Source: Blastocatellia bacterium (GTDB taxonomy: Bacteria; Acidobacteriota; Blastocatellia; RBC074). From it: DNA of 64,000 nt. The translations under genes were made by a program, and so were the position numbers. Of the stretch, positions 9,731 to 51,352 are shown in pieces; position 1 is the stretch's first letter; each line of letters starts with the position of its first letter. The stretch spans positions 2,230 through 66,229 of the forward strand of contig JAYVZE010000017.1 in NCBI GenBank assembly GCA_043783625.1. Direction: 5' to 3'. The notes below the pieces were generated by a model. The model saw only the letters and a list, made by a program, of their open reading frames with translations, was not told where the DNA came from and searched no databases.

Positions 9731-9771
9731 ATTTTATAATTTCTGAAAGGTGTTGGAATTTTCCTGTAGCA

Positions 9772-14399: not shown

Positions 14400-14502
14400 C
14401 GAAAATTTTTAGACAGGATTAACAAGATCAGTGAATTGGCTTCCTGTTCATCCTGAAGCAATCTTGTCAATCCTGTCTAAAATTGTTTTGAGTGAAAAAT
14501 TT

Positions 14503-14952
14503 ATGCGAAAACTATTTTTACCGTTGGCGGCGTTCACTTTGATTTTATTGAGCGGAACGTCTGTCATTGCGCAAACTGGCGGAACGATGCAGCGCGATGA
14601 AACTTTCGTTGTTGAGTATTACTACAAAGTGAAATGGGGCTACACAGATGAGTTCTTACGACTCTTCAAAAAAAATCATTTGCCAGTGCTGAAAAAGCAA
14701 ATTGAGATGGGGCGGATGACGCGGGTGAAGGTGGAAAAGCCGCGCTATCACGCTACCGAAGATGGTCGCTGGGATTTTCGGGTGACGATTGTTTTTAAGA
14801 ATGCGGCGACGGCATTTGCTCCAAGCCCTGAAGAAGAAATTACGAAGCAATTGTATCCCGATCAGGAAACTTTCAAGAAAGAAGAGCAGCGCAGATTTGA
14901 GATTTTGATTTCTCATTGGGATGTGCCGATTACGACTGTTCCGGTGGAGTAG
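14503..14952 (+). CDS. Hypothetical small secreted protein (150 aa).
   Basis: ATG at 14503 with signal peptide 'MRKLFLPLAAFTLILLSGTSVIAQ'. The ORF ends at a REP hairpin. Confidence 0.5.
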   Translation: MRKLFLPLAAFTLILLSGTSVIAQTGGTMQRDETFVVEYYYKVKWGYTDEFLRLFKKNHLPVLKKQIEMGRMTRVKVEKPRYHATEDGRWDFRVTIVFKNAATAFAPSPEEEITKQLYPDQETFKKEEQRRFEILISHWDVPITTVPVE

Positions 14953-14957
14953 TTTTT

Positions 14958-15029
14958 GCAGAAGCCCGCACGCGAGTCGAGGGCGTTTCTTCATTCGCAA
15001 TGACGCCCTTACTACGTGCGGGCTTCTGC
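14958..15029. repeat. REP family 1 hairpin (GCAGAAGCCCGCACG...CGTGCGGGCTTCTGC). The left arm is degenerate.
   Basis: Inverted repeat between the stop of the upstream ORF and the recF start. Confidence 0.65.
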
Positions 15030-15038
15030 CTGAATTTC

Positions 15039-16166: not shown

Positions 16167-16189
16167 CTGTACGGAAAGAAACGAATTAA

Positions 16190-18676
<2,487 letters not shown>

Positions 18677-30087: not shown

Positions 30088-30726
30088 TCAAACGTCATCA
30101 AGATGGGTAATGGCAAATTTCATCAGTGCATGGCTGCCGCGTATTTTTAGTTTTTCGTACATATTAGAGCGGTGTGTTTCAATGGTGCGTGGGCTGACAG
30201 AAATGGCGGCGGCAATTTCTTTTGTGGTTTTGTATTGGGCAATTAATTTCAGAATAGTGCGCTCAGTCGGAGTCAGACTTTCTACTTTTTGCACTGGTTT
30301 TGAGTCAGTCCCTCGGCGTATTAAATAAGAAGTCATGGCAGGGCTGATAAAAGGGTATCCGCTGCAAACGGTTTTGATCCCGGCGACGATGTCAGCCGGT
30401 GTACTGTCTTTCAAAATATAGCCTTGCGCCCCAACTTTGAGCGCTTTATTGAGAAAGCTTTCTTCCCGATAGACTGTCAGGAAAATAATCTTAATCGCAG
30501 GGAATTCTTTTTGTAAGACCTTAGCGACACTAAAGCCATCCAGCTTTGGCATGTTGATGTCGAGTACGATCACTTGCGGCTGAAGCTGTCGCGCCATTTC
30601 CAGTATTTCATTGCCATCCTGAGCCTCTGCCAGTAGCTCTATTTCAGGGGTTTCTTCGAGTTCTTGCCGTAATCCTTTGCGCACAATCGGATGATCGTCG
30701 GCGATTAAGATTTTACACTTACTCAT
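30088..30726 (-). CDS. NarL/LuxR-family response regulator.
   Basis: Receiver 'ILIADDHPIVRKGL ... VIVLDINMPKLDG' plus C-terminal LuxR-type HTH 'LTPTERTILKLIAQYKTTKEIAAAISVSPRTIETHRSNMYEKL'. Confidence 0.85.
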   Translation of the reverse strand: MSKCKILIADDHPIVRKGLRQELEETPEIELLAEAQDGNEILEMARQLQPQVIVLDINMPKLDGFSVAKVLQKEFPAIKIIFLTVYREESFLNKALKVGAQGYILKDSTPADIVAGIKTVCSGYPFISPAMTSYLIRRGTDSKPVQKVESLTPTERTILKLIAQYKTTKEIAAAISVSPRTIETHRSNMYEKLKIRGSHALMKFAITHLDDV

Positions 30727-33722
30727 AACTTGTCCTTAATGGGAAATCGCAGATGAAGGGTCGTTCCGTGACCTGGTACGGAACGAATGGTCATGTGTCC
30801 GGCTAACAACTTAGATCGTTCAATAATACTTTGCAGACCCAAACCACTGTAACCCCATTTGTCAGTTTGCGCCTTCACCACAAATCCACACCCGTTGTCG
30901 GTAATCATCAATTCAAGGCGATGTGGTTTTCGATTAATTGTTATTGTTACCTGCGAGGCTGCTGCATGTTTACTGATATTATTAAGCCCTTCCTGCACAA
31001 TTCGGTAGAGATTATTTTCCCCTTCTTTGGATAATGCACCATCCAGATTGTCTAATTGCTTGATGATTTGCCAACTCTGCGCAGCGGAGACGCGGTCAAG
31101 CAGATCGGAGATGGCTTCGGAAACACCCACCCGATCCAGTTGATGAGGACGCAAATCAAAGATGATTTCTTTGACCTCATCCAAGGCGAAGGTTGAGGCT
31201 TCGGCGATTTCCTGCAATTGTTCTTTGATTTGTTCCCGATCATCGACTGAATGCAAGCCGGTCAGTGCCCGTCGTTTGATAATCACCAGACTTTGACTTA
31301 ATCCGTCATGCATTTCGACCGCCATCCGCTGCCGTTCCCGTTCCTGTGATGCGATTAGTTGGCGGGCGAAATTTTCTTTTTGTGAAGCACGACGGTGCAA
31401 ACGTGAAAGTGACCAATAGTAAATGAACAGGAGCAGCCCCAGCACAAATGTTCCAAACAGGATTCGAGCCAACGATGTTTGCCAGAAGCGAGGTTGTACT
31501 TTTATTTGGATGGTAGCTTCGTGCAAGCTCCAGCCTCCAGCGGGGTTGGCAGCAATAAGTCGGAAACTATAGTTACCGGGTGGAAGCTGTGAGTAGAGTG
31601 CTGTGCGACGCGAACCAGCCGCAATCCAATCATTATCGAAACCCTCCAATTTATACATAAACTGAAGTTGTTCAGGTTTTGTTAAAGCTAACCCTGTATA
31701 CTGAATCTCTAAATTATTTATTCCGGGCGCAATTTTGATAGGAGATAAAGTATTTTGTGACTCCCTATCCAGAAAAACCTGCTCAATTGCCACCAACGGA
31801 GTCAAGACGTTACGGTTGTCAGGGGTGACGATGGCAATACCGCGAATCATTGGAAACCAAAGCTGCCCGTTTTGCATTTGCCAGCCAGCGGGAGAGGTTC
31901 CGCCATTGCCTTCCGTGACATCCAACCCATCAGAAACACCAAAGGCTTCACACAGCACCATTTTTGTTTTACCGCTGAGAAAATCATTGAGTCTTTGTCG
32001 GTCCAGACTAAAAATTCCACGATTCCCCAGCAACCAAAACTGATGCTTCTTATCAACTAAAATACGTGAAATAAAATCATCTGGAAGCCCGTTTTTAGTC
32101 GTGATATGCTCGAACTGGCCAGACTGAAACCGATTTAATCCACCACCGTAGGTAGCAATCCAAAGCACGCCATCCTCATCTTCATAAATGTCTCGAATAT
32201 AATCATTCGAGAGTCCTTCACGGGTTGTGTAATTGGTAAAAACACCATCTTTGAAATGACTGAGTCCCTTCACCGTGCCAATCCACAAACCTCCTTCTTT
32301 GTCTTCAAAAATTACTTTCACCTCCGCATGGACAAGCCCGTCAGATGCGCGGTAGTGTTTAATTTGCCCATCCCGGAAATGCCCCAATCCATCCTGAGAT
32401 CCCAGCCAGATTTGCCCGGAACGATCTTCAGCTATAGTTGACACACGCCCTAGAGATGGATCCTTATATTCGGTAAATTTTCCCTGCTGCAAATGCGTAA
32501 CTCCGTTAAATTGTCCGATCCATAATGTATCGTCGTGAGCTGCATAAAGCGCAGCAATCTCAGGTAGTTTAGCTGAGATCGTATTTCGAAAATCCAAAGT
32601 TACTTGTCCGTCCTGAATACGACATAAGCCCTTCTCTGTGCTGAGCCAGATATTGTTTCGATGGTCTTGTATAATGGATGAGACGTTGTATGGGAGCATC
32701 GAGATATTTCGAGGGCTGATTCGGTACAGACCGTCCCCGGATATTCCCAGCCAAAAATTTCCTTCTGTATCCTCAAACAATGAACGGGTAACTTGATTTT
32801 TTGCCAAGCTTGTTTTGTGTAAAAAAAGTTGTTCAGATTTTTCATTAAACAGGTCTCCGGTGTCAGGACTAAACCAGAGGGCAGATGTTAGCCCTGAAAC
32901 TATGGACATACGGGATGATTTATTAGCAAAAGCACGATGAACTTTGTAACGGCGATCCATGAAATGACCGATACTATTTGTGGTACTTAACCAAAAACCA
33001 CCATCCACATGAGGAAAGATTGCCATCGGATGATCTTTTGGGTTTGTTTGAATTTGCTGTGTGCTAATAATTTTCCCATTGTGAAATTCAACTAACCCCA
33101 AGGGAGTGGCTACCCATAAATTGCCATCGGTAGCTTCGCTGATTGAGGTGACATTGTTGTCTGGTAATCCCGCATGGCGATCAAAATGCTGTGACTGTGT
33201 GGGGTCTTGCTGATCGAAGCGCGTCAGCCCTGTGGTAACCGTGCTAAAATACATTGCCCCTGCCTTGTCTTCGTAAATTGTCTGGATGAAGTTGTACCCG
33301 ATGCCAGCACCAGTCGTTTCAAAATAATGGAAGACACCGTTGCGATAGTAGTAAATTTCGCAGGCATCAGTGCCGATCCATAATTTTCCGTCCCGGCTGA
33401 CATAGAGCGAGGTGATCCGATTACTTTTGAGGACAGGGGTATTGCTGGTATTGAAGATCGTGAATTTTAAGCCATCAAAGCGGGCTAATCCGCCAAACGT
33501 TCCCAACCACAAGTACCCATCTTGCGTCTGGACAATGGCTACGACGGTATTTTGTGGTAATCCATCCTCGGTTGTCCAATGTTTTGCAATGAAAGGGGTA
33601 GCTGAGACTGGACTGCCAGTCTGTGCCCTGACACCCACCACCAGCAGTTCCCAAAAGGCAAAAGCTAATCCTATTTGCCATAGCAAGATAAACTTATTTC
33701 GCATAAATGATAGAATGCGCAC
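30723..33722 (-). CDS. Sensor histidine kinase with a periplasmic two-component-regulator propeller plus Y_Y_Y domain, one TM helix, and HisKA_3 and HATPase_c domains.
   Basis: Repeated 'DG.LW(I/L)GT..GL..F' Reg_prop blades. TM 'ILFGTFVLGLLLFIYYW'. H-box 'EMHDGLSQSL'. HATPase 'DNGCGF ... GYSGLGLQSIIER'. The stop overlaps the regulator start (ATGA). GTG at 33722 or ATG at 33704 are candidate starts. Confidence 0.8.
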   Translation of the reverse strand: MRILSFMRNKFILLWQIGLAFAFWELLVVGVRAQTGSPVSATPFIAKHWTTEDGLPQNTVVAIVQTQDGYLWLGTFGGLARFDGLKFTIFNTSNTPVLKSNRITSLYVSRDGKLWIGTDACEIYYYRNGVFHYFETTGAGIGYNFIQTIYEDKAGAMYFSTVTTGLTRFDQQDPTQSQHFDRHAGLPDNNVTSISEATDGNLWVATPLGLVEFHNGKIISTQQIQTNPKDHPMAIFPHVDGGFWLSTTNSIGHFMDRRYKVHRAFANKSSRMSIVSGLTSALWFSPDTGDLFNEKSEQLFLHKTSLAKNQVTRSLFEDTEGNFWLGISGDGLYRISPRNISMLPYNVSSIIQDHRNNIWLSTEKGLCRIQDGQVTLDFRNTISAKLPEIAALYAAHDDTLWIGQFNGVTHLQQGKFTEYKDPSLGRVSTIAEDRSGQIWLGSQDGLGHFRDGQIKHYRASDGLVHAEVKVIFEDKEGGLWIGTVKGLSHFKDGVFTNYTTREGLSNDYIRDIYEDEDGVLWIATYGGGLNRFQSGQFEHITTKNGLPDDFISRILVDKKHQFWLLGNRGIFSLDRQRLNDFLSGKTKMVLCEAFGVSDGLDVTEGNGGTSPAGWQMQNGQLWFPMIRGIAIVTPDNRNVLTPLVAIEQVFLDRESQNTLSPIKIAPGINNLEIQYTGLALTKPEQLQFMYKLEGFDNDWIAAGSRRTALYSQLPPGNYSFRLIAANPAGGWSLHEATIQIKVQPRFWQTSLARILFGTFVLGLLLFIYYWSLSRLHRRASQKENFARQLIASQERERQRMAVEMHDGLSQSLVIIKRRALTGLHSVDDREQIKEQLQEIAEASTFALDEVKEIIFDLRPHQLDRVGVSEAISDLLDRVSAAQSWQIIKQLDNLDGALSKEGENNLYRIVQEGLNNISKHAAASQVTITINRKPHRLELMITDNGCGFVVKAQTDKWGYSGLGLQSIIERSKLLAGHMTIRSVPGHGTTLHLRFPIKDKL

Positions 33723-35919: not shown

Positions 35920-36249
35920 TCGTTTTCCAAAACCCTTGTTTGAAAAAACAGGGGTTTTCTTTTTTGGAATCAGCTCGTCATTACCTCTTTTATTCAACTG
36001 CGAAACAGAATCGTGAACTTGAATTACCGACCCCCAAAGTACGGTATCCCGGATTTCCGCTAGAGCGAGCAATTGCCCGGTGCGGAAAGGGAGTGCGCTG
36101 GAACCGCCCCGAACCTGCCACTCCTTCACATTAGCGAGTTTGATGAATTCGGATTGACTGATTATTTCTTATCACCAATTTTCGGTACATTGGAATCCAT
36201 CAAGAAGATCAACGGCGAGCTACGAACAGCTCGCCGTTTTTGCGTGTGT

Positions 36250-36310: not shown

Positions 36311-39300
36311 TTACCGGATGATGACGGTGAAGCCGACTTCACCGGAATTATCCGGCGTAATCGAACTTAAATATCCTGCTGTTACTCGCCAGCGAACCGC
36401 TTTGACGTTGCGGTCATAATTCGTTGTTGTGCCACCGCCACCGTTGACAGGTGTGTACGTCCAGGTCGCTGCTGCTGGTGTTACCGAGTTATAATCATTT
36501 GAATATTCCACGACAATTGTCAGGCCAGTCGAACCCGGATCAGTGGTGACGGAGCCGATTTTAAAGTCCGTCACCAGTGGGATGGCATCAGTGAGGGTAA
36601 CTTGTTTCGCCAATGAACCTCCGGTGTTAGTGAACGTGATGCTATAAGTGAGTTCTGTTGCAGGCGGTTGTTCACCGGTTGGATTGACGGATTTGCGCAG
36701 TGTTAGACTTGGAGCGGTAACTGCACCGACCGTCACTGTAGTTGGATCAATAGTGGTTGCAATCGTCTGGGGAATTGAACCTACCGGGATTTTCATGTTA
36801 TATGGCGCAGAGGTCACTGTTGCAGACATATCAGAAGTTTGTCCGGCGTTATCAGTGTTAATTCCGGCGAGCGAGATAATGCTGCCGAACCCGGTCGCCT
36901 GATTTGCGATAGTTCCTGTGAATCCGGCATTCATCGTGACCGGAATCGTGATTGTGAATGCCCCGGTGATATTAAGGTTTGCTCCAGCGGCAATAAGATT
37001 ACTGAGCGCACCGCTGGCAGCTCCCGTATACGCTGGATTTTTACCACCGCCAGTTCCGCTGCCGGCGGCTAAGACTGTTTGTCCACCCGTCGTAGTGATG
37101 GTGATTCCAGTTGGAAGTTGATCGTTGATCTGGAAGTTCGTCACCAACGATCCAAGGTTAATATAGTGAATGGTGTAATTTAGTGTGTCGCCAGCCGAAA
37201 TACCTCCACTCGCATCAGCATCAGTGATGAGTTTGATGGATTTGTAAGCAGCAATATTGACCACAGGAGTGGATTCAAACGCACATCCCGCATTTGCAAC
37301 ACTGCCAGACGTATTTTCATTGGCGGCAGTGCAAGCAGTAATTGCGCCAGTGGTGGTGACAGTCGCTTTGTTCGGGTCGCCTCCACTAAAAACTTTCGCT
37401 TGATTGACGACATCAGTCGTGAGGGTGGCAGCGGCATTAATATTGAAAGCAAAGACGCTCGTGCCAGAGGTCGCAGCAATTGCCGTTGTGCTGGTACAGG
37501 TAATTGATTGTGGTGATATGGCGTCACTGTTACACGTCCAGTTGGCAGCTTGTGAGCCAGATAGAGTAACTAAGCCTGACGCCCCATTGTTGACGGTGAT
37601 GCCTGTTGGCAGCGTATCTTTAACGGAAGTCGTGCCGAACGTTACTCCGTTGCCGACATTGGTCACGGTCATCGTGTATGTCATGGATGCACCCGCTTGC
37701 ACTGAAGCAGGTGCAGTCTTCGCAAGCTTGAGGTCAGGCAATCCACTGACAATAAAAGTGGTCGCATCAATTGTTCCCGTAATGGTCTGGGCAACAGAGC
37801 CGGCAGGAATCGTTAAATTATAGGGCGCACTCGTCACCAGTGAAGGCAAGTCAACCGTTGTGCCTGCGTTATCGGACAGCACAGAGGAACTCAGAGCTGT
37901 CCCTGTCCCGCTTGCTTGATTGATAACTGTCCCGGAAAATCCAGTATTAACCCTGACCGGGATGGATACGGTAATCACTCCGCTTGCTGCGAGCGTTGCA
38001 CCTGATGCCAGGAGGTTGCTCACGGCGGCTCCGATTCCTCCGGTATACCCGGTATTGGCTGAAGCACTGGTTCCGCCGCCTGAAACCAGCACAGTTTGTG
38101 TTCCTGTGGCAGCGATGGAAATGCCTGCCGGAAGTAAATCAGTAATTTGGAAATTAGTGGAGTCGCCTGCTCCAGTGTTGGCGTATTGCAAGGTGTAAGT
38201 CAGGGTATCGCCTGCTGTAATTGTTCCACTACTATCCGCGTCAGTTGTGAGCTTGACCGATTTATAGGCAGTCACTAGCGGAAGGGCGACAATGGTGAGT
38301 GAATAGTCTTCGACTTCGCCGCTGGTGGCATTTCCAATGGAGGACTCGGCCTCCGCCTGGGTGTTGCTGAGGCGAAAGCGGGCATAAGTCGCGGCTGCTG
38401 TCATCCCTGCCGGAGTCGTGAAGCTGACATTTTGACTCCCCGAAGCAGTGACTATGACCGTCGCGGATTTCTCACCTGTATCAAGGAAATCACCGTCCTT
38501 ATTGAAGTCAATGTAACCGACCAGATACGACGTTCCCGACGGGTTGGTGACATTGACGGGAACTGTATATGTCTGTCCGGCTGTTGTGGTCAGCGCTGGA
38601 AAACTGGCGACACCATCTTCATCATCCGGGGTTCCGTTGTTGTCATCGCCGTTGGCTGCCACACTCGATTGTGCGCTCGACTCAGGATCAGGTCCTACAC
38701 TGCCAAGATAAGGAGCAGTTGGGATTAAGGTTGCCATCGTCAAACTGTTCACTGTCGTTGTCGTGGTCAGTTGCGAGCCGCCACTCGCAGTGCGCCGCGC
38801 ATAGTGATTAGGTGTGCCGAAGCTGGCCGGAGCATCTCCATAATCAAAGGGCGTCATGATTCCGAAGGCGACCGCTTGGCTTCCACCAGCGAGTACATTC
38901 ACGGAAATCTGATTGATATTTTGAGATAAAGCAAGAAGTGTTCCGCCACCGGTGTTGGTAAGGTCTTCTGTATAGAGAGTGCGTCCGCCATTAGAAAACT
39001 TTGCGGTTAAAACAGAACCCGGAGCTGCCTCAAGCGGTTGCCATGGAGTACCATCTGTCGTCCAGGTTAAGGATTCATTACTGTTACCCGTATCTTCTGC
39101 ATCGGCGGTTACAATATCGGCAGGGACAGCAACTCCATTGATGAGCACACTAAAACTAACATCGAAGGTGGGGTCTTCTGACGCCACAACGTTAAGTAAT
39201 CCGATTGGGTTAATCCCACCATACAAATCATCCAATTTGTCACCGCCCCAGTCCCCCACATTGTAAGGACGAATCGCTTTGGTAATATTCCTGATAGTGG

Positions 39301-40009
39301 CAGTGATAGTCGCTCCGGTGAGTGTCGTCCAGGTTTTTGTAATGGTATCTCCCGGATTAAATTGCGAAGTTGCGCCACAACTCCAATTCAACCAATAGAT
39401 ATTGTTGCGGTATACACCCGTACCAGATGGGGCAAGCACCGCAGTACCAGTCGGGCAGGTGAGTGATACAGGGGCTGCTGCCGGAGTGATGGAGGGAGCC
39501 AGAGCGCACGTAGTACAAGTGCCGGGAGCGACAGGCGTGCCAGTGGCTACCATTTCGAGCGAAGTGCCGCTTTGAAACATCGTCATCGCCGGAAAAATCT
39601 TAAATGGCGTAGTAAAGTTTTTCAGGTCAGGTGGAGGCATTGGTGCTTCGGAATTAGCCCTGAAATTGGTGGAGCGGTTCGCGGCAATCTTGGGTTCGCC
39701 TGTACTTTGCGTCATCCATTCATCAATGCCAATGGCTTTTTCTGCCATTGGCTTCGCTGCTTCCGCTGCTTTTGTTTCGATAGTTTTTGGCAGCCAGGAG
39801 CGGAACTTCGCCACGCCTCGCTGCGCAGTTGCTTCTGCGCCATGCACGAATGGCGTGGCATTAATGAGCATTGGCTGAATCAATAACAAGGTGACAATTA
39901 AGCGGTTGATGCTTTGTCGAAGTGATTCAGGTTTAGTGACCGCTACAAAAAATGAAAAAGTAAGTGAGACCGCACGGCGGCAAAGCAGAAGAGTGCTGGC
40001 TGAGTTCAT
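36311..40009 (-). CDS. Large secreted DUF11-repeat surface protein E (about 1,230 aa) with a GEVED-like domain and a distinctive C-terminal module.
   Basis: Signal-like 'LIVTLLLIQPMLINATPFVHGAEA'. 'YGDAPASFGTPNHY ... FNKDGDFLDTGEKS ... SGEVEDYSL' carries a literal GEVEDY motif. Several DUF11-type units ('AYKSVKL.TDAD.SG.I.AGDTL.YT', 'LP.GI'). C-terminus '...WTYTPVNGGGGTTTNYDRNVKAVRWRVTAGYLSSITPDNSGEVGFTVIIR'. ATG at 40009 preferred over TTG at 40030. Confidence 0.7.
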   Translation of the reverse strand: MNSASTLLLCRRAVSLTFSFFVAVTKPESLRQSINRLIVTLLLIQPMLINATPFVHGAEATAQRGVAKFRSWLPKTIETKAAEAAKPMAEKAIGIDEWMTQSTGEPKIAANRSTNFRANSEAPMPPPDLKNFTTPFKIFPAMTMFQSGTSLEMVATGTPVAPGTCTTCALAPSITPAAAPVSLTCPTGTAVLAPSGTGVYRNNIYWLNWSCGATSQFNPGDTITKTWTTLTGATITATIRNITKAIRPYNVGDWGGDKLDDLYGGINPIGLLNVVASEDPTFDVSFSVLINGVAVPADIVTADAEDTGNSNESLTWTTDGTPWQPLEAAPGSVLTAKFSNGGRTLYTEDLTNTGGGTLLALSQNINQISVNVLAGGSQAVAFGIMTPFDYGDAPASFGTPNHYARRTASGGSQLTTTTTVNSLTMATLIPTAPYLGSVGPDPESSAQSSVAANGDDNNGTPDDEDGVASFPALTTTAGQTYTVPVNVTNPSGTSYLVGYIDFNKDGDFLDTGEKSATVIVTASGSQNVSFTTPAGMTAAATYARFRLSNTQAEAESSIGNATSGEVEDYSLTIVALPLVTAYKSVKLTTDADSSGTITAGDTLTYTLQYANTGAGDSTNFQITDLLPAGISIAATGTQTVLVSGGGTSASANTGYTGGIGAAVSNLLASGATLAASGVITVSIPVRVNTGFSGTVINQASGTGTALSSSVLSDNAGTTVDLPSLVTSAPYNLTIPAGSVAQTITGTIDATTFIVSGLPDLKLAKTAPASVQAGASMTYTMTVTNVGNGVTFGTTSVKDTLPTGITVNNGASGLVTLSGSQAANWTCNSDAISPQSITCTSTTAIAATSGTSVFAFNINAAATLTTDVVNQAKVFSGGDPNKATVTTTGAITACTAANENTSGSVANAGCAFESTPVVNIAAYKSIKLITDADASGGISAGDTLNYTIHYINLGSLVTNFQINDQLPTGITITTTGGQTVLAAGSGTGGGKNPAYTGAASGALSNLIAAGANLNITGAFTITIPVTMNAGFTGTIANQATGFGSIISLAGINTDNAGQTSDMSATVTSAPYNMKIPVGSIPQTIATTIDPTTVTVGAVTAPSLTLRKSVNPTGEQPPATELTYSITFTNTGGSLAKQVTLTDAIPLVTDFKIGSVTTDPGSTGLTIVVEYSNDYNSVTPAAATWTYTPVNGGGGTTTNYDRNVKAVRWRVTAGYLSSITPDNSGEVGFTVIIR

Positions 40010-40297
40010 GTTGTACGTACCCCTACGCAAATAGACAGGGCTGAAAATCTAACGATGATGCATCCGAAGACTGTGGAATCGGAAAAACTGAAGTGGGAGA
40101 ATGAGGTAGCCGGATTAACTATGTCTTCAGGTTGGCGCCCGAAATGAGAGGTTGATGAACTACCCGTCCACTATCAAAAAAACATCGTATGAGTGAGCTG
40201 AGAAAGATTGTGAGTTGTTGACTACAGGGCTAAAGGCGAGAACAGTGTAATCAAAATGAAATAGATTGCAAGAAAAAATTTCAAACTGACCGAACCC

Positions 40298-40351
40298 ACG
40301 CTAAAGTAAATTACCTGATGCTAATGCATCAGGTAATTTACTTTAGCGTGA
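40298..40351. terminator. Intrinsic terminator hairpin downstream of gene D (25-bp perfect stem, 4-nt loop, T-tract on the minus strand).
   Basis: CACGCTAAAGTAAATTACCTGATGC taat GCATCAGGTAATTTACTTTAGCGTG. Confidence 0.65.
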
Positions 40352-40388
40352 ATCTATCAAGATAGTGAGTAGATATTTTTTGTAAGCG

Positions 40389-42836
40389 TTAACGAATTTT
40401 GACGGTGAAAGTGACATCGCCTGGAGTGCCTGAACTTAGGTTTCCAGCCGTTGTTCGCCATCGAATATGAGTAATATTTCGATCATAGTTGGAGGGCGCA
40501 CCTCCGGCTCCACTGGACGGGGTATACGTCCAGGTAACACCGCTATCGCTCGAATATTCAATGACGAAAGTCAATCCGGTGCTACCAACGTTGACGGCAG
40601 CGCCAGGGCTAACCTGATAATCGGTTGAGGTGGGGATCGGGTCAACGATTTGTACTTTCTGTGCGGCGACTCCACCGCTATTGGCAAAGGTAATTTTGTA
40701 ACTCAGGTCTGTTCCGGCTATCTGGTTGACAGTTTCGCACGTGGCGGGAGCGGTACAACTTTTGACCAAAGCGATTGCCGGAAGGCTTGAAATAATGACA
40801 TCTTCAGTGGTTGTTCCGGTGGCAGTTCCGTCATAATTTGAACCGCCCACACTGCCGGAGAAACTCCCGGTTTCATAGCTGGTATTGGTGGTGTAAGCCG
40901 TTCCTCCATTGGCTATACTGGTAGTTGCATTCGTGAACGGCTTCAGCACGCGGGCGGCAGTGGAACGGGTCGGATCAGCATAGGCAACGGTGGCCGGATT
41001 CTGATAAGTTCCATCGGCTGTCCCTGATGCAATATTGACCGTGAAGGTAATACTGACGGTTCCTCCGGCTGGAATATCAAGTGAATCCCAATGCAATGAT
41101 GTAGCAGCGGCAGCGGGTTTTGTGGTTAGTCCTGCGAGCGTGGCTGCCGTGGTAGTGCCAGCCAGATAAACGCCAGTACTCGCGGTAAAAGTTCCTGCCG
41201 AAGCAAAGGTGAAACCTGAAGGTAAACGCAAATCTGAAATACGAACAGCCTTCGCTGTGCCTGCTGTTGCGGCATTCGCCACTTGAATCGTGTAAGTCGC
41301 GGTTCCACCGGAAGGGAAGGGACCAGGCGTAGAAGTTGATTTTGTGACGGTCAGGGAAGGTAAGCAGCCTGCGCCTGAGGCTGTGCCCGTCGTTGTGACG
41401 GAAGCAGTTGTGACTCCATTTGTGCCATCAGCAGCTCCGTAGCTTTTGGGAGTCGTACTTCGATCCAGACCCGCAACGCCTTTAGTAACATTGGTCGAAA
41501 CTCCACCGTTAGCCGCGATAAATCCGCCGCCGCCGCCGCCGCCAGGGCCGTGTTCGAAATATCCTGAGCGACCACCGTTGCCCCCTTTAGCATTTGCGCT
41601 CAGACCACTTGTACCATTCGCTGACGAGATAGTGATGCTGCCGCCTGCGCCGCCGCCGCCGCCAGAATCAGTTTGACCTGAGGCAGGTAAGTCTAACGCA
41701 GCATTACCATTTGCATTAATCGTTCCACTTCCAGTGATTGCTCCGGCTCGGATTAATACAAGACCTCCGCCGTTTCCTCCACCCATGAGATACTCGTTGC
41801 CTGATGCACCTGCCGTACTGTTATTGCCATCACCAGCACCGCCGCCGCCGCCCATCACGATTTGTGAGCTTGAAGCCAGGAATGCTGAGCCTCCAAAACC
41901 GCCCTGAGCGAATCCATTGGGAGGGTTATTGGCAGCGATATTATTATGCCAGTTATTTCCGCCTATCCCGCCCGTGCCGCCATTAGCGCCGCCGCCGCCG
42001 CCGGCATTCAACCCATTATCTACGTTTGGCGCATAATCATTGGAGCCGCCACCAGCATTACCTGGCGCACCACGTCCGATGCTGCCTCCAGTATAATTAT
42101 CCGCGCCTGTCGCAGCCGTAGTGCCACCGTTAACACTTAACGGTGTTCCTGCGATTCCTTCGCCCTTCATTCCGCTGAAAGTGCGAGACGAAAGATATAA
42201 ATAATCTCCAGTTGCAGAGGTGATGCTTGTATCGCCTGTTTTTTGCAGCCCTGCACCACCACGAAACCCTTGTCCTGAAACGTCAATTGTACCAGAGAAG
42301 GTTAAAGTTCCAGTTGTGTCCAAAGCGACTACGCCGCCAGTCGTGCCATTCCAGACAGCGGCGGTGACAGTCCCGCTCACCGTGGCAGAGGAGTATTGCG
42401 GTACGCGAATGATTTGATAGGTTTGTCGGCTGGAAACGCTTTGCGTGTAGGTGTAGGTGAGAGAAGCCGCCAGCGTTAAGATCGAACCGGAGACCGTTTT
42501 GACGGTCGCATATTCATACCTGCCTGCGGCTGCATCTACGCCACTCCCATAAGAAGCAGAGTTTGAGAAGCTGACTCCGTTACCGCTTTGCATCTGCATC
42601 AGGATAATCAAATCGCCAACGGCAATGGCAGGTTTTGCCGCATCACGAATCGTCCCAAGTGTGACACTCGTACCTGAGGCCGTACTGGTTCCGGCATAGT
42701 AAGTATTGACGACACTCGTCAGGGTCGTGTTGATTCCATCTTTGCCGGGAGATGCACAAACCTGTGCGATGATCGGCATTGCCAGTAAAAATAAGAACAT
42801 TCCCACTGCGGCGAGAGCCTTGAATTTATTCCACAT
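40389..42836 (-). CDS. Secreted DUF11-repeat protein D (about 815 aa) with an approximately 200-aa Gly-rich beta-helix-like tract and the same C-terminal module as E.
   Basis: Signal 'MWNKFKALAAVGMFLFLLAMPIIAQ'. Gly-rich 'GGGGGANGGTGGIGG ... GGGGGAGGSITISSANG ... GPGGGGGGGF'. DUF11 units 'LTVTKSTSTPGPFPSGGTATYTIQVANA'. C-terminus '...WTYTPSSGAGGAPSNYDRNITHIRWRTTAGNLSSGTPGDVTFTVKIR'. Confidence 0.65.
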   Translation of the reverse strand: MWNKFKALAAVGMFLFLLAMPIIAQVCASPGKDGINTTLTSVVNTYYAGTSTASGTSVTLGTIRDAAKPAIAVGDLIILMQMQSGNGVSFSNSASYGSGVDAAAGRYEYATVKTVSGSILTLAASLTYTYTQSVSSRQTYQIIRVPQYSSATVSGTVTAAVWNGTTGGVVALDTTGTLTFSGTIDVSGQGFRGGAGLQKTGDTSITSATGDYLYLSSRTFSGMKGEGIAGTPLSVNGGTTAATGADNYTGGSIGRGAPGNAGGGSNDYAPNVDNGLNAGGGGGANGGTGGIGGNNWHNNIAANNPPNGFAQGGFGGSAFLASSSQIVMGGGGGAGDGNNSTAGASGNEYLMGGGNGGGLVLIRAGAITGSGTINANGNAALDLPASGQTDSGGGGGAGGSITISSANGTSGLSANAKGGNGGRSGYFEHGPGGGGGGGFIAANGGVSTNVTKGVAGLDRSTTPKSYGAADGTNGVTTASVTTTGTASGAGCLPSLTVTKSTSTPGPFPSGGTATYTIQVANAATAGTAKAVRISDLRLPSGFTFASAGTFTASTGVYLAGTTTAATLAGLTTKPAAAATSLHWDSLDIPAGGTVSITFTVNIASGTADGTYQNPATVAYADPTRSTAARVLKPFTNATTSIANGGTAYTTNTSYETGSFSGSVGGSNYDGTATGTTTEDVIISSLPAIALVKSCTAPATCETVNQIAGTDLSYKITFANSGGVAAQKVQIVDPIPTSTDYQVSPGAAVNVGSTGLTFVIEYSSDSGVTWTYTPSSGAGGAPSNYDRNITHIRWRTTAGNLSSGTPGDVTFTVKIR

Positions 42837-43175: not shown

Positions 43176-43210
43176 ACTTGTTAAGGAACCTGTCAAAAAT
43201 AAGATTAAAC

Positions 43211-43243
43211 GAATCCCCCTCCTGTTTCAGGAGGGGGATTCGT
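43211..43243. terminator. Hairpin terminator 4 nt downstream of the giant gene C (GAATCCCCCTCCTG tttc AGGAGGGGGATTC).
   Basis: 13-14 bp GC-rich stem. Confidence 0.65.
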
Positions 43244-43247: not shown

Positions 43248-46200
43248 TTACTTGTTTTCAGGAGCCGGTGTTGCCGGAGCTGGCGTCGCTGCCGGAGTGG
43301 TCGCTGAAGGTGATTGAATAGGTTCGTTACCGACCAGTCCTTCACGCGAAGTTCCGAACAAATTGAACATATTCGAGAGCTTCGAGGACACCACGAAATA
43401 GAAACCCTTACGAGTATTTAATCCGCGTGAATCAAAGCCGCCGAAGTAGCCGGCATTTTCAGTCATGCGGGTAAAGTTGTAACCACCCGCGAGGCGTAAG
43501 TCAGATAAAGCCCAGAAGCCTACTTCAGCACCTGCTGAGAAGCGTCGTGATGAAACTCCACTCAACCACAGGGAGCGAACTTCACCCGCGACATCAAAGA
43601 ATTTAGCCAGGCGTAATTCAGCTCGTCCTTGTAATAACATTGTCATCGTCGAAGCGAGCGGTAAATTGGCGCTGCCATTTGAGCCAAATTTCAGTGCATA
43701 ACGCCCATACAACTCTAAACGTCGTAATGGTTGATAAAGTCCGTCCGCTGCCAGAATGTCATCACGATCACGAGTTGACGCAAAACTGGAGACAGCGCTT
43801 TGATTGATGGAACGATGCGTGTAGCTAAACAACATGGCGGCGCGGTCTGATTCCAGCGGTCTCCAGGAGGCGGCGAGCTGCCCGTTCATCATTTCGTTAT
43901 TCTGATTTTGGAAAGCAGTACGCGAATACTGGAAGCGACCGAGAGTTGTAAAACTCGCTGATAATTTTCCGGCGGCGCCGACTGTGAAAATGTTGCCAAA
44001 ACCATTGAGGTCACGCAATTCATAACGTGCGGCCGAATGGAAGCTATCGGTCGGATTATAACTGGCTCCAAACATTGCGTTATTGAAGCTCTGTCCGTTA
44101 CCTTTCAAATGCATTCCGCGTTCGTATCCGGCATCCAGTGAAAACGTCTTACTTAATGGAAAGCGGTTCATTAATCCAACGACAGCGAAACTGTCAGTTC
44201 CATTGATGCCGTTGTTGATTTGGTAGCGTCCGCTCATGGTCGTGTATTTGCTCAGCGGAGATTCGACTCCGATAGCGGTTTCACGCCGTGAAGCAGTTTC
44301 AGCAAATCCGGTTGAGCTTAAATCACTGATGGCGCTGATGGCTTGTGAAGCTAATCGTTGCGTAAAGAAAATCTTTGCCAGTGAACTCACCTGATAGCTG
44401 GCTGCGATAGTCGTTTGATCTGGATACGAAGGGTCGGCAGTACCAACGTTTTGCTCGCGCTTGACAGAAATTTGTAATTTGCCGGTCGGGCGATATTCTG
44501 CGCCTGCGGTCACTAAGTTAGAGGTGACACTGCGCCCGGCGAAAGAATTCGCAGTGGCTGGCGTGGTCGTTCCCGCTGTGCCATTCGTATCTGCATTCGT
44601 ATTTGCCTGATTCGCCAGCACGCTGCCGGATGAATCGGTAAAGGTGCGATAATCATAACCAAGACTCACACGAAGTTTGTCGCCGAAAGATTTAATCAAG
44701 CCGACAGAACCAGTTTGGCGAGTGTTATTAAACGTCGCAGTTTTGTTTCGTTCATCAGTGAAACCCAAACGCATTTGCATTGAAGGACGTGGTTTGAAAT
44801 CCAGTGCGACGGTTCCGCGTTGCGATCCAGGTGACACCGTTGAACCAAAAGGATTAAAAAACGATTGATCTGATTTTCCGAAGCTGGCTTGTAACTGAGC
44901 TTCGGCAAAATTCAACGGTTGACGATATTCCGCACGGAAGGCGTTGCCGTTATGTTCACCGTTACCACTGTTCAGGCTTCCGGCTAATCCGTCATAACCG
45001 AAGTAGCTGCCTGTTGAAGCAACACGACCGTTGCTCATCCCCCATTCAAATTGGAACGTTCCGCTCTTCCCGATTTTCTTCTCAACGTCTACGCCGCCGA
45101 GATAGAACGAGCCATAATTTTCCTGACGTTGGTCAATGAATGAAGTTCCAACGCGTAACCCCATCCGGCTGAAATTCTTCGAGCCGCGTGCGGTGTAGAC
45201 TGCCGAATTCATTGCGACTGAGCGGTATTCATAGGTCGTGACAACCTGCACCAGATTCAGCGCATAATCAAAAGCTGACAGCGGACGCATAAAGTAGATC
45301 GAACCAAGATAAGGGTCAATATTGTAATCCACTGAACGGACCAGGACTTCACGTTGCAGAATAATGTCAGGGTTACGACGATCACGGACTTCGCGCATGA
45401 CTGTCTCAGTTCCTTGCAAAACATCAGTATGGGAAAGTCGAATCAATCCGAAGCTACTGCCCGGGAAGACATCACGAGCAAAAGCGGTGTCAGGTCGTGC
45501 GCCAGTCACAGTGATGGAACTGCCGCCTTCACTTTCGAGATGGATTTTAACCCCGGTGAGGCGACGACTGTAACCCGTCAGTTGCGGCCCTTGAGCGGCG
45601 AAAACCGGGACGGAATTAAAGTTATTAATGATTGAATTACCGATTCCTGAACTGGCTAAATTCTCAGCCAAATTGGTCAGCGGAGTTGGTGTGAAGCCAT
45701 TATTGATATACTCCTGTTGATTCGCATTGAAATCACCGAACATCGCGTAAGAGCGGCCTTTATCAATCCGGGCATATAGTTTGGAATTTGATTGCGCATC
45801 TTCAAAGCGAGTTGAAGAATCTCCGAAAATTGGATAGACCCGATCAAGCGGATCAAGGAAGAAAGAGCGATCACGTCCGGCGGTGCGGGTCAACGCACGG
45901 TAGCTGTTATAGGCCAACGTCAGTTGTGCCTGTTTGATGAGCGGGGTGCGATAGAAAAATTCGACGTGATGGTTGTAATTTTTGTCGCCACCGCGTAGCG
46001 CTACTTCAGGTGCCGCTTTACCGAAAGAAGCTTCGGCTAATCCGACGAGAATTTGCGGACGCATTTCAGGCGTGAAGCGAATGTCACGCTGGACTTTTAA
46101 CTCACCGGAGAAGGCGCGGATTTCTGCATTTCCGGGCTGACCTTCACCGACGAGTTCGACCAATGCTTCACCGTTTTCGAGCGAAATAATTTGTTGGCGG

Positions 46201-49200: not shown

Positions 49201-49556
49201 GGCGTAGAAACTGTACTACGGGTGAGGGTAAAGGTATCAGGCGTATTTCCGATGTTGCAGGCGCGGAACACACGTGTCACGGTCTCATTTGCTAAAACTA
49301 CCCCGGAAGATTGTGGATCATCTGGAGTGACAACGATTCCAGTAATCGCCACAACTGTAATTGAGACGATGGGAGAAGAAATCACAAAGTCTTTGCCGCT
49401 TGGATCTTGATAGCTTGCGCGGGCCTGGTTTTTGATGACGACTCCGGCGGAGATGCCACCTGTGACGGGAGTTGCTTCCTTTTGTGCGATGGCTGAAGTC
49501 GCACCGGCTGCAATTAAGACCGCAAAGATGAGGTAGGTGTTAATAAGTCTAAGCAT
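43248..49556 (-). CDS. Giant outer-membrane/surface protein C (about 2,100 aa). Domain order: signal, DUF11 and Cna-B/carboxypeptidase-regulatory-like repeats, Pro/Ala-rich linker, Ig-like (Big) domains, C-terminal beta-barrel-like region of about 900 aa, Thr/Pro/Ala tail.
   Basis: Signal 'MLRLINTYLIFAVLIAAGATSAIAQ' from ATG at 49556 (TTG 49595 is an alternative). 'VIKNQARASYQDPSGKDF' DUF11 end-motif. 'GVRVYLNNGTSVITDSKGMYNF' Cna-B-like. Linker 'AGAPGAPGAPGIAGAPAAPAKP' near 47.1-47.3 kb. The last approximately 900 aa (nt about 43350-46060) show alternating hydrophobic strands that often end in aromatic residues ('LRLGFTDER', 'VSLGYDYRTF', 'LDAGYERGMHL', 'LYGRYALKF', 'AELRLAKFF', 'AEVGFWAL', 'LAGGYNFTRM', 'GFYFVVSSKLSNMFNLF'). 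Confidence 0.75.
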   Translation of the reverse strand: MLRLINTYLIFAVLIAAGATSAIAQKEATPVTGGISAGVVIKNQARASYQDPSGKDFVISSPIVSITVVAITGIVVTPDDPQSSGVVLANETVTRVFRACNIGNTPDTFTLTRSTVSTPSSLVAMYWDIDGSGTVTPADLAITLNQTASPTIPPGECIGILAVIDTGNVAKDDPVTIGITVKTNAPSNNGPQKDDGTIISKTGEPARITDPANPSLPPIKLVENKDQFTSTAGSVVTYSISFRNRGQVPAINILLSDDLPAQIDYVSGTLKLGTTSLTDISDTDEGQIINGRRLEIKLAKVDPDQIVSVTFQAKLNDNVIPGVGIINTAQVSGDNIGTAIKTSKTKVVINPVGTVYAGYSNGSVPIPNAKVTLTTDKDGLNLLPVPTGGFDPNPTNSNPFTTDAQGHFSFTLGANQVGAPGAPVTYFVNVAAQGYRSRLVEIKIQPSPTNPDLYTVDVISADGQPISQAGSFKLSNTNVSLFDIAAVVLNIPMFETTTLQLTKVADKQRAEIGEMISYRLEAQNSTAQKFTAVQLRDTLPLSFSYVPGTARVQVDGTPAFAIEPTVSNNQMVFNIGDLAGGGRVTVTYRLRVGANAKQGEQVNSVVATGVYPNGDPITTPAVKAPVLVGMGQFSMRQIIIGRVFEDTNGNGLFEKCDRPVAGVRVYLNNGTSVITDSKGMYNFPSIEEGATSLTLDPFTVPRGYGLLDSKLKAHRSWTRLVRTPLGGGGLNRQNFVLEKTRNPITEAVTDIEGGVETGVFAGVAAGAPGAPGAPGIAGAPAAPAKPVAGAPAKPTAEAAEAEKSDENKVKGKAGSRQSKARKNASSKNDIASGGALDGVLSRARGPKTRAGLAAMNVGKGGYRTPGTYTDISTDNIEPVAAGEIKVLSPEAKEVIMENALRVEARVHMDYVVALEVNGERIPETNIGVKEVDKKNKIATFVYVGIVLKPGPNEIKVTAVDQNGVPAQSQNLSVMGRGPVTRLEIVTDKKEVQSGGRDSTIVRVKGFDQWGNPAASGQVGIQVSAGRLLRLTDSNTSPVAIKEPAKDAAGNPVEAPPALSGQRCERGSFATKQEENDCLTALAKLRGLSHEEVEKLRSPLLGAGSEPINGFSSEQVNATNRQQIISLENGEALVELVGEGQPGNAEIRAFSGELKVQRDIRFTPEMRPQILVGLAEASFGKAAPEVALRGGDKNYNHHVEFFYRTPLIKQAQLTLAYNSYRALTRTAGRDRSFFLDPLDRVYPIFGDSSTRFEDAQSNSKLYARIDKGRSYAMFGDFNANQQEYINNGFTPTPLTNLAENLASSGIGNSIINNFNSVPVFAAQGPQLTGYSRRLTGVKIHLESEGGSSITVTGARPDTAFARDVFPGSSFGLIRLSHTDVLQGTETVMREVRDRRNPDIILQREVLVRSVDYNIDPYLGSIYFMRPLSAFDYALNLVQVVTTYEYRSVAMNSAVYTARGSKNFSRMGLRVGTSFIDQRQENYGSFYLGGVDVEKKIGKSGTFQFEWGMSNGRVASTGSYFGYDGLAGSLNSGNGEHNGNAFRAEYRQPLNFAEAQLQASFGKSDQSFFNPFGSTVSPGSQRGTVALDFKPRPSMQMRLGFTDERNKTATFNNTRQTGSVGLIKSFGDKLRVSLGYDYRTFTDSSGSVLANQANTNADTNGTAGTTTPATANSFAGRSVTSNLVTAGAEYRPTGKLQISVKREQNVGTADPSYPDQTTIAASYQVSSLAKIFFTQRLASQAISAISDLSSTGFAETASRRETAIGVESPLSKYTTMSGRYQINNGINGTDSFAVVGLMNRFPLSKTFSLDAGYERGMHLKGNGQSFNNAMFGASYNPTDSFHSAARYELRDLNGFGNIFTVGAAGKLSASFTTLGRFQYSRTAFQNQNNEMMNGQLAASWRPLESDRAAMLFSYTHRSINQSAVSSFASTRDRDDILAADGLYQPLRRLELYGRYALKFGSNGSANLPLASTMTMLLQGRAELRLAKFFDVAGEVRSLWLSGVSSRRFSAGAEVGFWALSDLRLAGGYNFTRMTENAGYFGGFDSRGLNTRKGFYFVVSSKLSNMFNLFGTSREGLVGNEPIQSPSATTPAATPAPATPAPENK

Positions 49557-49807: not shown

Positions 49808-51352
49808 TTAAGGTTTGATCTTACGGGTGAAAGTCAGTGTTCCGACTTTGGTTCCAGCTAATGTTCCAATGCTGGCAACGTATTTGGCTTGCGCCACTGC
49901 ACCTGTGCTGGCGCTAACGACCGGCACTACTACCGTTCCATCATTGTTGGCAGCTTCACCTGCCACGTAGTTGGTGGCTCCGGCCCAGTTATTAGCACCG
50001 GCATCACCATCTTCAGTGATGACGACTAATTGCGCAGGAAGATCAACGCTGCCTGATCCTGTCGGAGCAGCCGAAACGTTGGTGGCAGTCACGGTGTACT
50101 GAATGTCAGCGCCTGGAACCGGATCAGTCGCTGCACCAACGCCAGTGGCGTTGACAACGGTAGCTGTTTTCAAGAGCCTCAGATAACCGGGGAACAGACG
50201 ATCAATCGTGTTATTGGTAATCAATGGATCCATTACTGAACAGACCGTGATGACGGTGTCATAACCAGCTTCGGTAACAACTCCGGTAGGAAGTGTGACG
50301 CGAACCTTATAGTTCAGACTTGAACCCGCTGCGACCGCCGCAGTGGTGACCATTGGTGTCGCAGTTGGTGCACCGGCTAAAACAACAGTCGTGTAAGTTG
50401 CACCGCCATCAATGCTGATTTCGACGGTTGATCCGGCTGGATAAGTACCAGCACCAGTGGCAGGTTTAATCGTGAATGTTTCCGGGCCGTTGCCAGAGTT
50501 CTTCAAAGTATTATCGAAGACAGTTGGAGTCGTCGGAGCATTTGGATCAACCGCTTTATTGGTGTAATCCGTATTCAGGTTCGCTGGCGCAGCACCTGGA
50601 CCTGTGGCGTTTGGCGCACCATTTGGACCATTCTGAACCATTGGCACGTTGCTGACATTTAGTACTACCGCACCCTTGGCTTCTTTTTCAGGGCCGGTGA
50701 TCGTAATGCCTCCCGGTGCGCTGGTCGAAACTTCATGTATCGACGAATCCTTAGTTTGGTTGTCAAACCCAGTGCCTGTGGTGGTATCGCCGAGTGAAAC
50801 GGTGAGGGCTGCACCTGCAATGGCGGCTGTGTCAACTGTGACAGTGACGACAACCTTTTTGGTTGCGCCCTGGGCAATCAATTGATCTACTGCGGCGGCA
50901 TTGCCCAGGATGTCAATGTCGCCAGCACCAAATGTGCCGTTGCCATCGTTATCAATGAACGCTGAGGCTACGGTTCCAGGCCCGCTGAGCTGAACACTTG
51001 CACCACTTGGCAGGAAGTGAGCGTTGTTCGAGAAGTTGCCCAGATTGTTGACATCGAATGTAAAGGTTGCCGTTGAACCGGGTGCCGGTGTTGGCGCACC
51101 AGTAGCAGGTGCTGTCTGATCCGGTGTGATCGACAAGCCGGCGACATACGCGACAGTGGTGACGACTTCATTCGATGTCGTGTTGTACTTTAATGGAGTT
51201 AACGGATCGTCTGTATAGGTCGCGGACGCTTTGTTTTTGATTTGTGTTCCGCCAGCGGTTGCAGTTGATTGTGCAAGTGCGGAAGTAGCTAACGAGGCGA
51301 GGACAACAGCGCCGATCAGCACCTTTCCCCAAATATTAATTTTGCTCTTCAT
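49808..51352 (-). CDS. Secreted DUF11-repeat protein B (514 aa) with Thr/Ala/Pro-rich segments.
   Basis: Signal 'MKSKINIWGKVLIGAVVLASLATSALAQ'. 'IKNKASATYTDDP ... SNEVVTTVAYVAG' DUF11 end-motif as in C. AGGAG Shine-Dalgarno upstream of the ATG. Confidence 0.6.
   Translation of the reverse strand: MKSKINIWGKVLIGAVVLASLATSALAQSTATAGGTQIKNKASATYTDDPLTPLKYNTTSNEVVTTVAYVAGLSITPDQTAPATGAPTPAPGSTATFTFDVNNLGNFSNNAHFLPSGASVQLSGPGTVASAFIDNDGNGTFGAGDIDILGNAAAVDQLIAQGATKKVVVTVTVDTAAIAGAALTVSLGDTTTGTGFDNQTKDSSIHEVSTSAPGGITITGPEKEAKGAVVLNVSNVPMVQNGPNGAPNATGPGAAPANLNTDYTNKAVDPNAPTTPTVFDNTLKNSGNGPETFTIKPATGAGTYPAGSTVEISIDGGATYTTVVLAGAPTATPMVTTAAVAAGSSLNYKVRVTLPTGVVTEAGYDTVITVCSVMDPLITNNTIDRLFPGYLRLLKTATVVNATGVGAATDPVPGADIQYTVTATNVSAAPTGSGSVDLPAQLVVITEDGDAGANNWAGATNYVAGEAANNDGTVVVPVVSASTGAVAQAKYVASIGTLAGTKVGTLTFTRKIKP

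Follow-up and report, generated by a model that had tools for sequence, protein, structure and literature searches.

Two neighbouring genes of a Blastocatellia bacterium, here called D and E, end in the same kind of C-terminal domain (CTD), which is the subject of this analysis. Together with three partner genes, A, B and C, they lie on a 64,000-nucleotide stretch of contig JAYVZE010000017.1 (positions 2,230 to 66,229 of the forward strand), referred to below as the window, with positions counted from its first letter. The CTD comprises about 130 amino acids (aa), derives from the CLIPPER/DUF11 stalk fold, and closes otherwise unrelated proteins whose genes mostly adjoin an A-B-C array. This genomic association suggests a domain specific to the cluster that serves the A-B-C apparatus in docking or sorting, a function to which we give about an even chance. 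The reading is favoured because the domain ends the protein, because conservation extends to its terminal I-R and to a long loop at the surface, because it is attached to unrelated passengers and kept by orphan genes, because its linkage to the barrel gene C is seen from both directions, and because a free-standing paralogue, A, accompanies it.

The last 149 residues of D and E are 46% identical across 145 aligned columns (BLASTP, E=1e-36), a similarity far beyond chance, and the tails alone (75 aa in E, 66 aa in D) are 65% identical. Translation of the minus-strand open reading frames (ORFs) places a stop codon immediately 3' of IIR in E and of KIR in D. An earlier sequence-only reading of the same DNA had described homologous ends that stop straight after (K/I)IR, and was right on both counts, with the end strings exactly quoted. 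It had also taken the similarity for a module of about 75 aa starting at 'GSTGLT', which proved too short. The homologous stretch covers ~130-145 aa, with its N-terminal limit at 'PSLTLRKSV' in E and 'PAIALVKS' in D, and residues 689-824 of D match the CTD profile with a probability of 100% (hhalign). An AlphaFold2 (AF2) model of the last 140 aa, built from a 36-sequence alignment, is a single beta-sandwich with a mean predicted local distance difference test score (pLDDT) of 95.5 and strands at residues 10-17, 27-36, 46-50, 55-58, 63-65, 72-78, 112-119 and 130-139 of this segment. The tail corresponds to residues 66-140, that is, to three strands and an ordered 30-residue loop. Since one sandwich spans the whole segment, the 75-aa tail is not an autonomous unit: the unit is the entire CTD of about 130 aa, and the tail is its back half.

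By fold and by front-half sequence the CTD belongs to the CLIPPER/DUF11 superfamily. Its first ~55-80 residues match the Pfam and NCBIfam models DUF11 (CLIPPER), DUF7507, DUF7927, DUF7619 and TIGR01451. The TIGR01451 repeat model exceeds its cut-off of 24 bits in both proteins (37.5 in E, 28.3 in D), in the front half only; PF01345 reaches 23.5 and 20.7 bits on the isolated CTDs against a gathering threshold of 24.6, where it spans profile positions 2-84 of 114. The tail drew no match from Pfam or NCBIfam, even at E<=10, and a search of PDB sequences with the CTD profile gave nothing significant (best E=0.15). Foldseek against the PDB returned immunoglobulin (Ig)-sandwich neighbours, namely integrin calf domains, RrgB, SpaA, the carbohydrate-binding modules CBM2 and CBM3, and the CLIPPER crystal structure 9IFR, all of them weak (E>0.02, template-modelling (TM) score <=0.5 or thereabouts). 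The best small-domain match was 9IFR (probability 1.00, TM 0.48/0.53, E>0.02). As modelled, the fold is a CnaA-like Ig beta-sandwich with eight predicted strands, 7-9 being expected of CLIPPER.

In the back half, an Asp-box hairpin is joined by the GGGA..YDR loop, the IRW strand and a last strand that ends in [RK]-I-R-COOH. The family consensus of the hairpin, YSNDGGATW, follows the Asp-box pattern S-x-D-x-G-x-T-W, as does YSSDSGVTW in D, and an insertion of 6 aa interrupts the box in E. The family alignment has eight invariant columns, and seven of them fall in the tail half (S78, Y93, P95, D107, W115, P127 and G131). Among 214 distinct CTDs, S78 and D107 are conserved in 100%, W115 in 99.5%, R114 in 98%, W91 in 86% and D80 in 84% (otherwise N), while the penultimate residue is I in 94% and the last one R in 89%. 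In the front half, the strand-1 lysine K14 is kept in 82% and D49, the Asp of 'D-x-x-P', in 95%.

The isopeptide triad of CLIPPER structure 9IFR consists of K715, D748 and N806, which are the strand-1 Lys, the catalytic Asp and an Asn of the penultimate strand. In the CTD the penultimate strand reads (V/I)RW, with R-W where CLIPPER has the isopeptide Asn. N109 was considered as a partner of K14; it is present in only 50% of the 214 CTDs (96/176 with K14, 10/38 without) and is therefore not a conserved isopeptide partner. Position 109 is a Cys in 16 of the 214. A subfamily of Gemmatimonadota-type CTDs (P0018, P0019, P0020, P0142 and others) carries G-C-G-A..YD-x-C instead of GGGGA..YDRN, and its two conserved Cys probably form a disulfide in the tail loop.

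The CTD could in principle serve ligand binding: by attaching to carbohydrate, lipopolysaccharide or exopolysaccharide it would provide, without involvement of C, a non-covalent tether between the protein and either a substrate or the glycans of the cell's own surface. The weak likeness to the cellulose-binding modules CBM2 and CBM3 would fit this explanation, as would the Asp-box and the conserved aromatic residues Y77, W91, Y93, Y106 and W115 of the tail. However, every one of the Foldseek matches is weak by the values given above, and the Asp-box is a structural hairpin rather than a binding site. The only PDB sequences that touched the Asp-box part of the CTD profile were sialidases and reelin, at non-significant E-values of ~1-9. 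Ligand binding would also leave the strictly C-terminal position and the synteny with C unexplained, and we consider it improbable.

The position of the domain was read from two data sets. In a genome scan that combined a position-blind pattern with tblastn and took one genome per species, 200 relatives were found and the best 80 (79 loci) kept. All 90 of the 90 tail matches in the six-frame translations of these 79 loci end at a stop codon, in ORFs that reach 2334 aa, some of them cut by contig ends. An exhaustive search of 1.84 billion (1.84e9) representative proteins with a hidden Markov model (HMM) gave 612 matches at E<=1e-3 and 404 at E<=1e-10. Among the 612, positions were read for the best 150: the match reaches the final residue of the protein in 139 and stops one residue short of it in 8 (147/150), and the remaining three are followed by 5 or 14 more residues or represent an odd fragment. 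RIR, KIR, RVR and IIR are the most frequent endings. A word-index protein search returned only short fragments, which were excluded from the positional statistics.

The sequence-only reading had named the circumstance that would weaken its own idea, namely a tail that is just the generic last strand set of every DUF11 repeat, present internally in many repeats. The idea survived this comparison. An HMM built from the two tails alone matches, in six-frame translations of the window, the C-termini of D and E only, and in profile-profile comparison the DUF11 repeats that lie inside B, C, D and E cover no more than CTD profile positions ~2-73. Across the 79 loci, 36 significant matches are restricted to the front half and none of these is terminal, whereas 89 of the 90 matches that reach the profile end are terminal at the ORF end and single. 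The tail is family-specific and not a generic DUF11 ending, and the CTD, unlike the norm for CLIPPER/DUF11, is not an internal tandem stalk repeat. The tail is also tightly linked to the A-B-C cluster.

The kept relatives, like all CTD carriers known here, are metagenome-assembled genomes (MAGs): 74 belong to Acidobacteriota, 4 to Gemmatimonadota and 1 to Eremiobacterota. Acidobacteriota carriers include Blastocatellia, Pyrinomonadaceae, Chloracidobacterium and Aridibacter, and the window DNA itself is 81-85% identical to two Blastocatellia MAGs. The passengers that precede the CTD are mutually unrelated. They comprise the Gly-rich AgmC_N-like region of D, the CshA_NR2, GEVED and CLIPPER domains of E, beta-helix/NosD, G8, DUF642 and SdrD_B domains, and regions with no known domain.

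The genes of these proteins close a conserved array, A-B-C followed by one or two CTD proteins, which in the window takes the form A, B, C, then D and E. A homologue of C lies directly upstream of the CTD gene in 57 of the 79 loci, and 15 of the loci without an upstream C are truncated by a contig end. About seven loci (L002, L013, L016, L018, L026, L029 and L032) are true orphans, away from any C gene, as expected of a signal acting in trans; L026 is a paralogue of E in the same MAG as locus L001. B was found in 34 loci. Where there is DNA upstream of B to be read, it always holds A. The linkage also holds in the opposite direction, for a search started from C retrieved four close homologues on long contigs (L081-L084), and all four loci show A (174-175 aa), B, C and then a protein that ends in a CTD. 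In locus L049, from Gemmatimonas, A-B-C and the CTD gene run towards each other; the linkage therefore survives both rearrangement and a change of phylum.

All five proteins A-E start with a Sec-type signal peptide, as read from their sequences. For C, Foldseek with the modelled C-terminal barrel gave 154 PDB matches at E<=1e-3, and among the 50 listed nearly all are outer-membrane barrels, headed by the 30-strand SlpA of D. radiodurans and followed by TonB-dependent receptors, MtrB and LptD. The C-terminal ~950 aa of C matched no Pfam or NCBIfam model, a sequence comparison of C with the PDB found nothing, and none of its database homologues carries a protein name. On the structural model, C ends in an outer-membrane barrel of ~30 strands.

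A is a small secreted protein made of one domain. Its family aligns with the CTD family at a probability of 97.7% (E=2e-12, hhalign), and at 96.8% (E=2.6e-10) when 40 sequences are used; the homology covers the Asp-box and the IR(W/Y) strand, and reciprocal plain-HMM matches occur in L081-L084. By these profile comparisons A is a free-standing remote homologue (paralogue) of the whole CTD, tail part included. The sequence-only reading, which held that A, B and C lack the tail, is thus correct for close copies, the tail HMM matching only D and E, and has to be corrected for A. The A family numbers at least 151 clusters, and the 120 listed are mostly of 160-176 aa (range 131-204), secreted and single-domain. 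B was also tried as a CTD homologue and rejected, since only the front half of its last domain matches (probability 82%); relatives of B show a weak match to DUF7925. Just past their signal peptides B (residues ~36-80, about 51113-51247) and C (~52-95, about 49311-49442) have in common a motif of ~45 aa, IKN-x-A-x-A-x-Y-x-D ... V-x-G-[LI]-x-[IV]-TPD, which is absent from D and E; it could be a common interaction element. The coordinates of the five genes and their domains are collected in Table 1.

Table 1. Genes A to E of the window and the domains discussed in the text (positions in the window)
Feature	Position	Strand	Description
Gene E, 1239 aa	36311..40030	-	Signal peptide, CshA_NR2 head, GEVED, CLIPPER repeats, CTD (Pfam/NCBIfam)
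E CTD, residues ~1107-1239	36314..36712	-	CLIPPER/DUF11-like beta-sandwich, predicted complete (AF2)
E tail, last 75 aa	36314..36538	-	Asp-box with 6-aa insertion, NYDRN, VRWRV, end ..FTVIIR-stop
Gene D, 824 aa	40389..42863	-	Signal peptide, Gly-rich AgmC_N-like region (40-454), CLIPPER, CTD
D CTD, residues ~695-824	40392..40781	-	BLASTP against E CTD, E=1e-36
D tail, last 66 aa	40392..40589	-	Canonical Asp-box YSSDSGVTW, NYDRN, IRWR, end ..FTVKIR-stop
Gene C, 2115 aa	43248..49595	-	Signal peptide, ~1100 aa of CLIPPER/SdrD_B/Big-like domains, predicted C-terminal outer-membrane beta-barrel
C barrel, residues ~1464-2071	43383..45206	-	~31 consecutive antiparallel strands predicted; AF2 pLDDT 70-90
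Gene B, 514 aa (relatives 670-750 aa)	49808..51352	-	Secreted Ig-like protein of several domains, conserved in the position between A and C, end ..TFTRKIKP-stop
Gene A, 174 aa	51512..52036	-	Signal peptide and one free-standing domain, end ..YKVRVK-stop

The existence of A brings in the main rival explanation, a thin usher-like fibre in which A would be the major subunit assembled at the C barrel and the CTD would be the 'pilin domain' that builds an adhesin into the fibre or onto it, as in FimH or PapG of chaperone-usher pili. A is a stand-alone homologue of the CTD, and the order of small subunit, accessory protein, barrel and adhesins with a subunit-like C-terminal domain is similar to the gene order of fim/pap operons; moreover, A, B, D and E share an ending made of a strand with a basic residue after it. 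Against this, Pfam scans found neither an usher (PF00577) nor a PapD-like chaperone (PF00345) in C or B, the CTD is predicted by AF2 to be a complete, self-sufficient sandwich with no strand missing, and A aligns over the full domain with no obvious donor extension. A fibre of this type is, in our estimate, doubtful.

A simpler explanation regards the CTD as a structural end-cap: the last CLIPPER domain, having diverged with nothing following it, would owe its spread to adhesin genes that duplicated inside a single operon and would have no dedicated partner. Its ordinary DUF11 front half, its generic CnaA-like sandwich and the taxonomic narrowness of the family are compatible with such an origin, and so is the fact that in D orthologues the passenger is conserved as much as the CTD. 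Yet the CTD is fused to unrelated passengers, some of them without a CLIPPER stalk, and genes away from the cluster keep it. The linkage to A-B-C persists across phyla and with changed gene orientation, the terminal I-R and the long surface loop are conserved beyond what the fold requires, and the operon retains the free-standing paralogue A. A mere end-cap is thus an unlikely account of the domain.

If the CTD is instead a docking or sorting domain, the following scheme may be proposed. D, E and their relatives would be Sec-exported surface proteins with variable passengers (adhesin heads, beta-helices, stalks) and no membrane anchor of their own. The CTD, as the last element with its [RK]-I-R-COOH end, would be recognised by the A-B-C apparatus encoded just upstream, most probably by docking onto C (~2000 aa, with its barrel of ~30 strands), and docking would lead to export of the passenger across the outer membrane, to its retention there, or to both. 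A, as a secreted free paralogue of the CTD, may fill a similar site, for example as a cap, a plug or a base subunit. What we infer in this scheme is that the CTD touches C, which way export runs, and what A does. It is tempting to go further and to view the CTD as the client tag of an undescribed outer-membrane display or secretion pathway, in which C, aided by B, would export and hold Sec-delivered adhesins and A would be a plug, a cap or a fibre subunit; this extension is offered only tentatively. Equally speculative is the notion that such a pathway would occur mainly in Blastocatellia (Acidobacteriota) and in some Gemmatimonadota, and would be analogous, not homologous, to type IX secretion (T9SS) or to chaperone-usher systems.

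Several observations weigh against the docking or sorting function. The count of end positions in the protein library draws on the best 150 of 612 matches. One weak internal match to the full profile exists (33 bits, independent E-value 4e-8), at residues 285-404 of a 980-aa protein (L007 7265-10204), which also bears a terminal CTD. A distant C-like barrel (L080, 42% identity) has no CTD neighbour; in this locus (2670-17014) the barrel protein has 1185 aa, a separate 2376-aa CLIPPER protein comes before it and a TonB-dependent-receptor-like gene after it, and the arrangement may represent the system in a split or an ancestral form. Common ancestry inside a single bacterial class could account for part of the synteny. 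The cluster showed neither a conserved processing enzyme nor a conserved chaperone or energy source, and the co-occurring processing enzyme that the sequence-only reading had suggested looking for is not among the conserved neighbours. Finally, in D orthologues the CTD (80-81%) is less conserved than the passenger (88%), the reverse of what is found in E-type proteins (88% against 60%, and 56% against 29%); because the result is mixed, relative conservation was not used as evidence. Overall, the dedicated module proposed from the sequence stands as regards position, family specificity and linkage to the cluster, whereas its function is drawn from position and synteny.

Other features of the locus concern the regulation and surroundings of the genes. 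A perfect GC-rich stem-loop of 16 bp (43209-43243, minus strand) lies 5 nt past the stop codon of C, before a gap of ~400 nt to D, and is a possible terminator or attenuator between the two genes; a 12-bp hairpin (36211-36238) follows E. A-B-C and the CTD genes may be separate or attenuated transcription units. Directly upstream of A, loci L081 (9-4355) and L082 (216-3941) encode a GAF histidine kinase, a sigma-54 activator response regulator and a small receiver protein. The window has LolA and a HAD phosphatase there instead, and a Reg_prop/Y_Y_Y kinase with a LuxR regulator at 30088-33722. A recF-like gene and gyrB (14916-18676), with a Mur ligase, ftsY and ribD nearby, place the cluster in an ordinary chromosomal context.

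The Gly-rich residues 40-454 of D resemble AgmC, an adventurous-gliding protein of Myxococcus, in its N-terminal domain (NF047640), with a score of 158 bits, under the 275-bit cut-off. In the Eremiobacterota locus L058 (2848-5724) a D-like (AgmC_N-like) protein of 959 aa without a CTD stands between C and the CTD protein, and ends, as B does, in a strand and a basic residue (..GTITFAVVVK-stop). Three more large proteins of the window also have no CTD: a 1786-aa M36 fungalysin with TIG and Kelch propeller domains (4251-9611), a 953-aa DUF7948 and SBBP propeller protein (1024-3885), and a 1492-aa protein with five BACON repeats (59376-63854).

Acidobacteriota are among the most abundant bacteria of soil, and to our knowledge the route by which they place large adhesins on the outer membrane is essentially unknown. 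In the literature on DUF11 proteins and on adhesins and secretion in Acidobacteria and Blastocatellia, no account of this cluster was found, only a CLIPPER survey. With the CTD HMM and the strict rule that a match must end the protein, more than 600 protein clusters, bearing adhesin heads, beta-helices and stalks, can be named as likely clients of a single conserved outer-membrane apparatus; three partner families without annotation, A, B and the C barrel, come into view as well. Should the docking function be true, it would represent a new way to anchor or export surface proteins in diderm bacteria, and would give rise to new Pfam and NCBIfam models for regions that now have none.

Comparison with known systems starts from the stalk itself. 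Fibrillar adhesins with a CLIPPER stalk normally bear a C-terminal sorting or anchoring domain of the OmpA-like, Por_Secre_tail or CHU_C type, and the Acinetobacter silvestris adhesin B9T28_05395, with a CshA-type head and stalk, has an OmpA-like C-terminal anchor (PMC12617251). E, which by its domain matches has the layout of a fibrillar adhesin, shows the same order of head and stalk (CshA_NR2, GEVED, CLIPPER repeats), with the CTD in the anchor slot; because of this architecture the CTD may be regarded as an anchoring or sorting domain. It has no OmpA-like or peptidoglycan-binding signature, however, and E would be anchored to a partner protein rather than to peptidoglycan. With CLIPPER/DUF11 domains (PF01345, TIGR01451; PDB 9IFR) the CTD shares the front half, the CnaA-like fold, the strand-1 Lys and the 'D-x-x-P' Asp. 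It differs in a back half free of any model, with the Asp-box hairpin, the long GGGA..YDR loop and IRW at the site of the isopeptide Asn, and in never occurring in tandem, being confined almost entirely to the extreme C-terminus.

The chaperone-usher systems (FimH/PapG with FimD/PapC) resemble the cluster in having a variable N-terminal head, a C-terminal Ig-like domain homologous to a small subunit, the place taken here by A, and a flanking barrel gene. They are set apart by the lack of usher or PapD-like chaperone homology in C and B, by a CTD that is predicted to be complete and not strand-deficient, and by the C barrel, which is predicted to have ~30 strands, not 24, and is extended by ~1100 aa of Ig domains.

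The T9SS CTD (Por_Secre_tail, TIGR04183), with its translocon SprA, is alike in being a small C-terminal beta-sandwich carried by unrelated cargo and served by a very large outer-membrane barrel, and its final strand likewise ends in a basic residue. This shared logic, together with the presence of some carriers in Gemmatimonadota, a relative of the FCB (Fibrobacteres-Chlorobi-Bacteroidetes) group, would favour the explanation that the CTD is a divergent form of a known sorting signal, whether T9SS CTD, PEP-CTERM, LPXTG or another xxx-CTERM. No Pfam or NCBIfam sorting model, including TIGR04183, PF18962 and the type-B CTD models, gave a match at E<=10, whether to D and E or to their CTDs in isolation, and a T9SS, PEP-CTERM or LPXTG identity was rejected on these negative HMM scans, in agreement with the sequence-only reading, which had seen no such signature. 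The 50 C-barrel Foldseek matches listed include SlpA, TonB-dependent receptors and LptD but no SprA, and none of PorU, PorV, SprA and GldKLMN was noticed in the window or in the 20-kb loci, whole genomes not having been searched. The CTD is longer (130 aa, against 70-100 aa), its barrel gene adjoins the cargo genes, and its hosts are mainly Acidobacteriota. PEP-CTERM, LPXTG and other xxx-CTERM signals consist of a short motif, a hydrophobic helix and a basic cluster at the C-terminus, whereas the CTD has neither such a helix nor such a cluster and ends in a beta-strand, ..FTV(K/I)IR. A divergent known signal is therefore highly improbable. By analogy, the CTD would work in its logic like a T9SS CTD or the pilin domain of an adhesin, while being a member of neither family.

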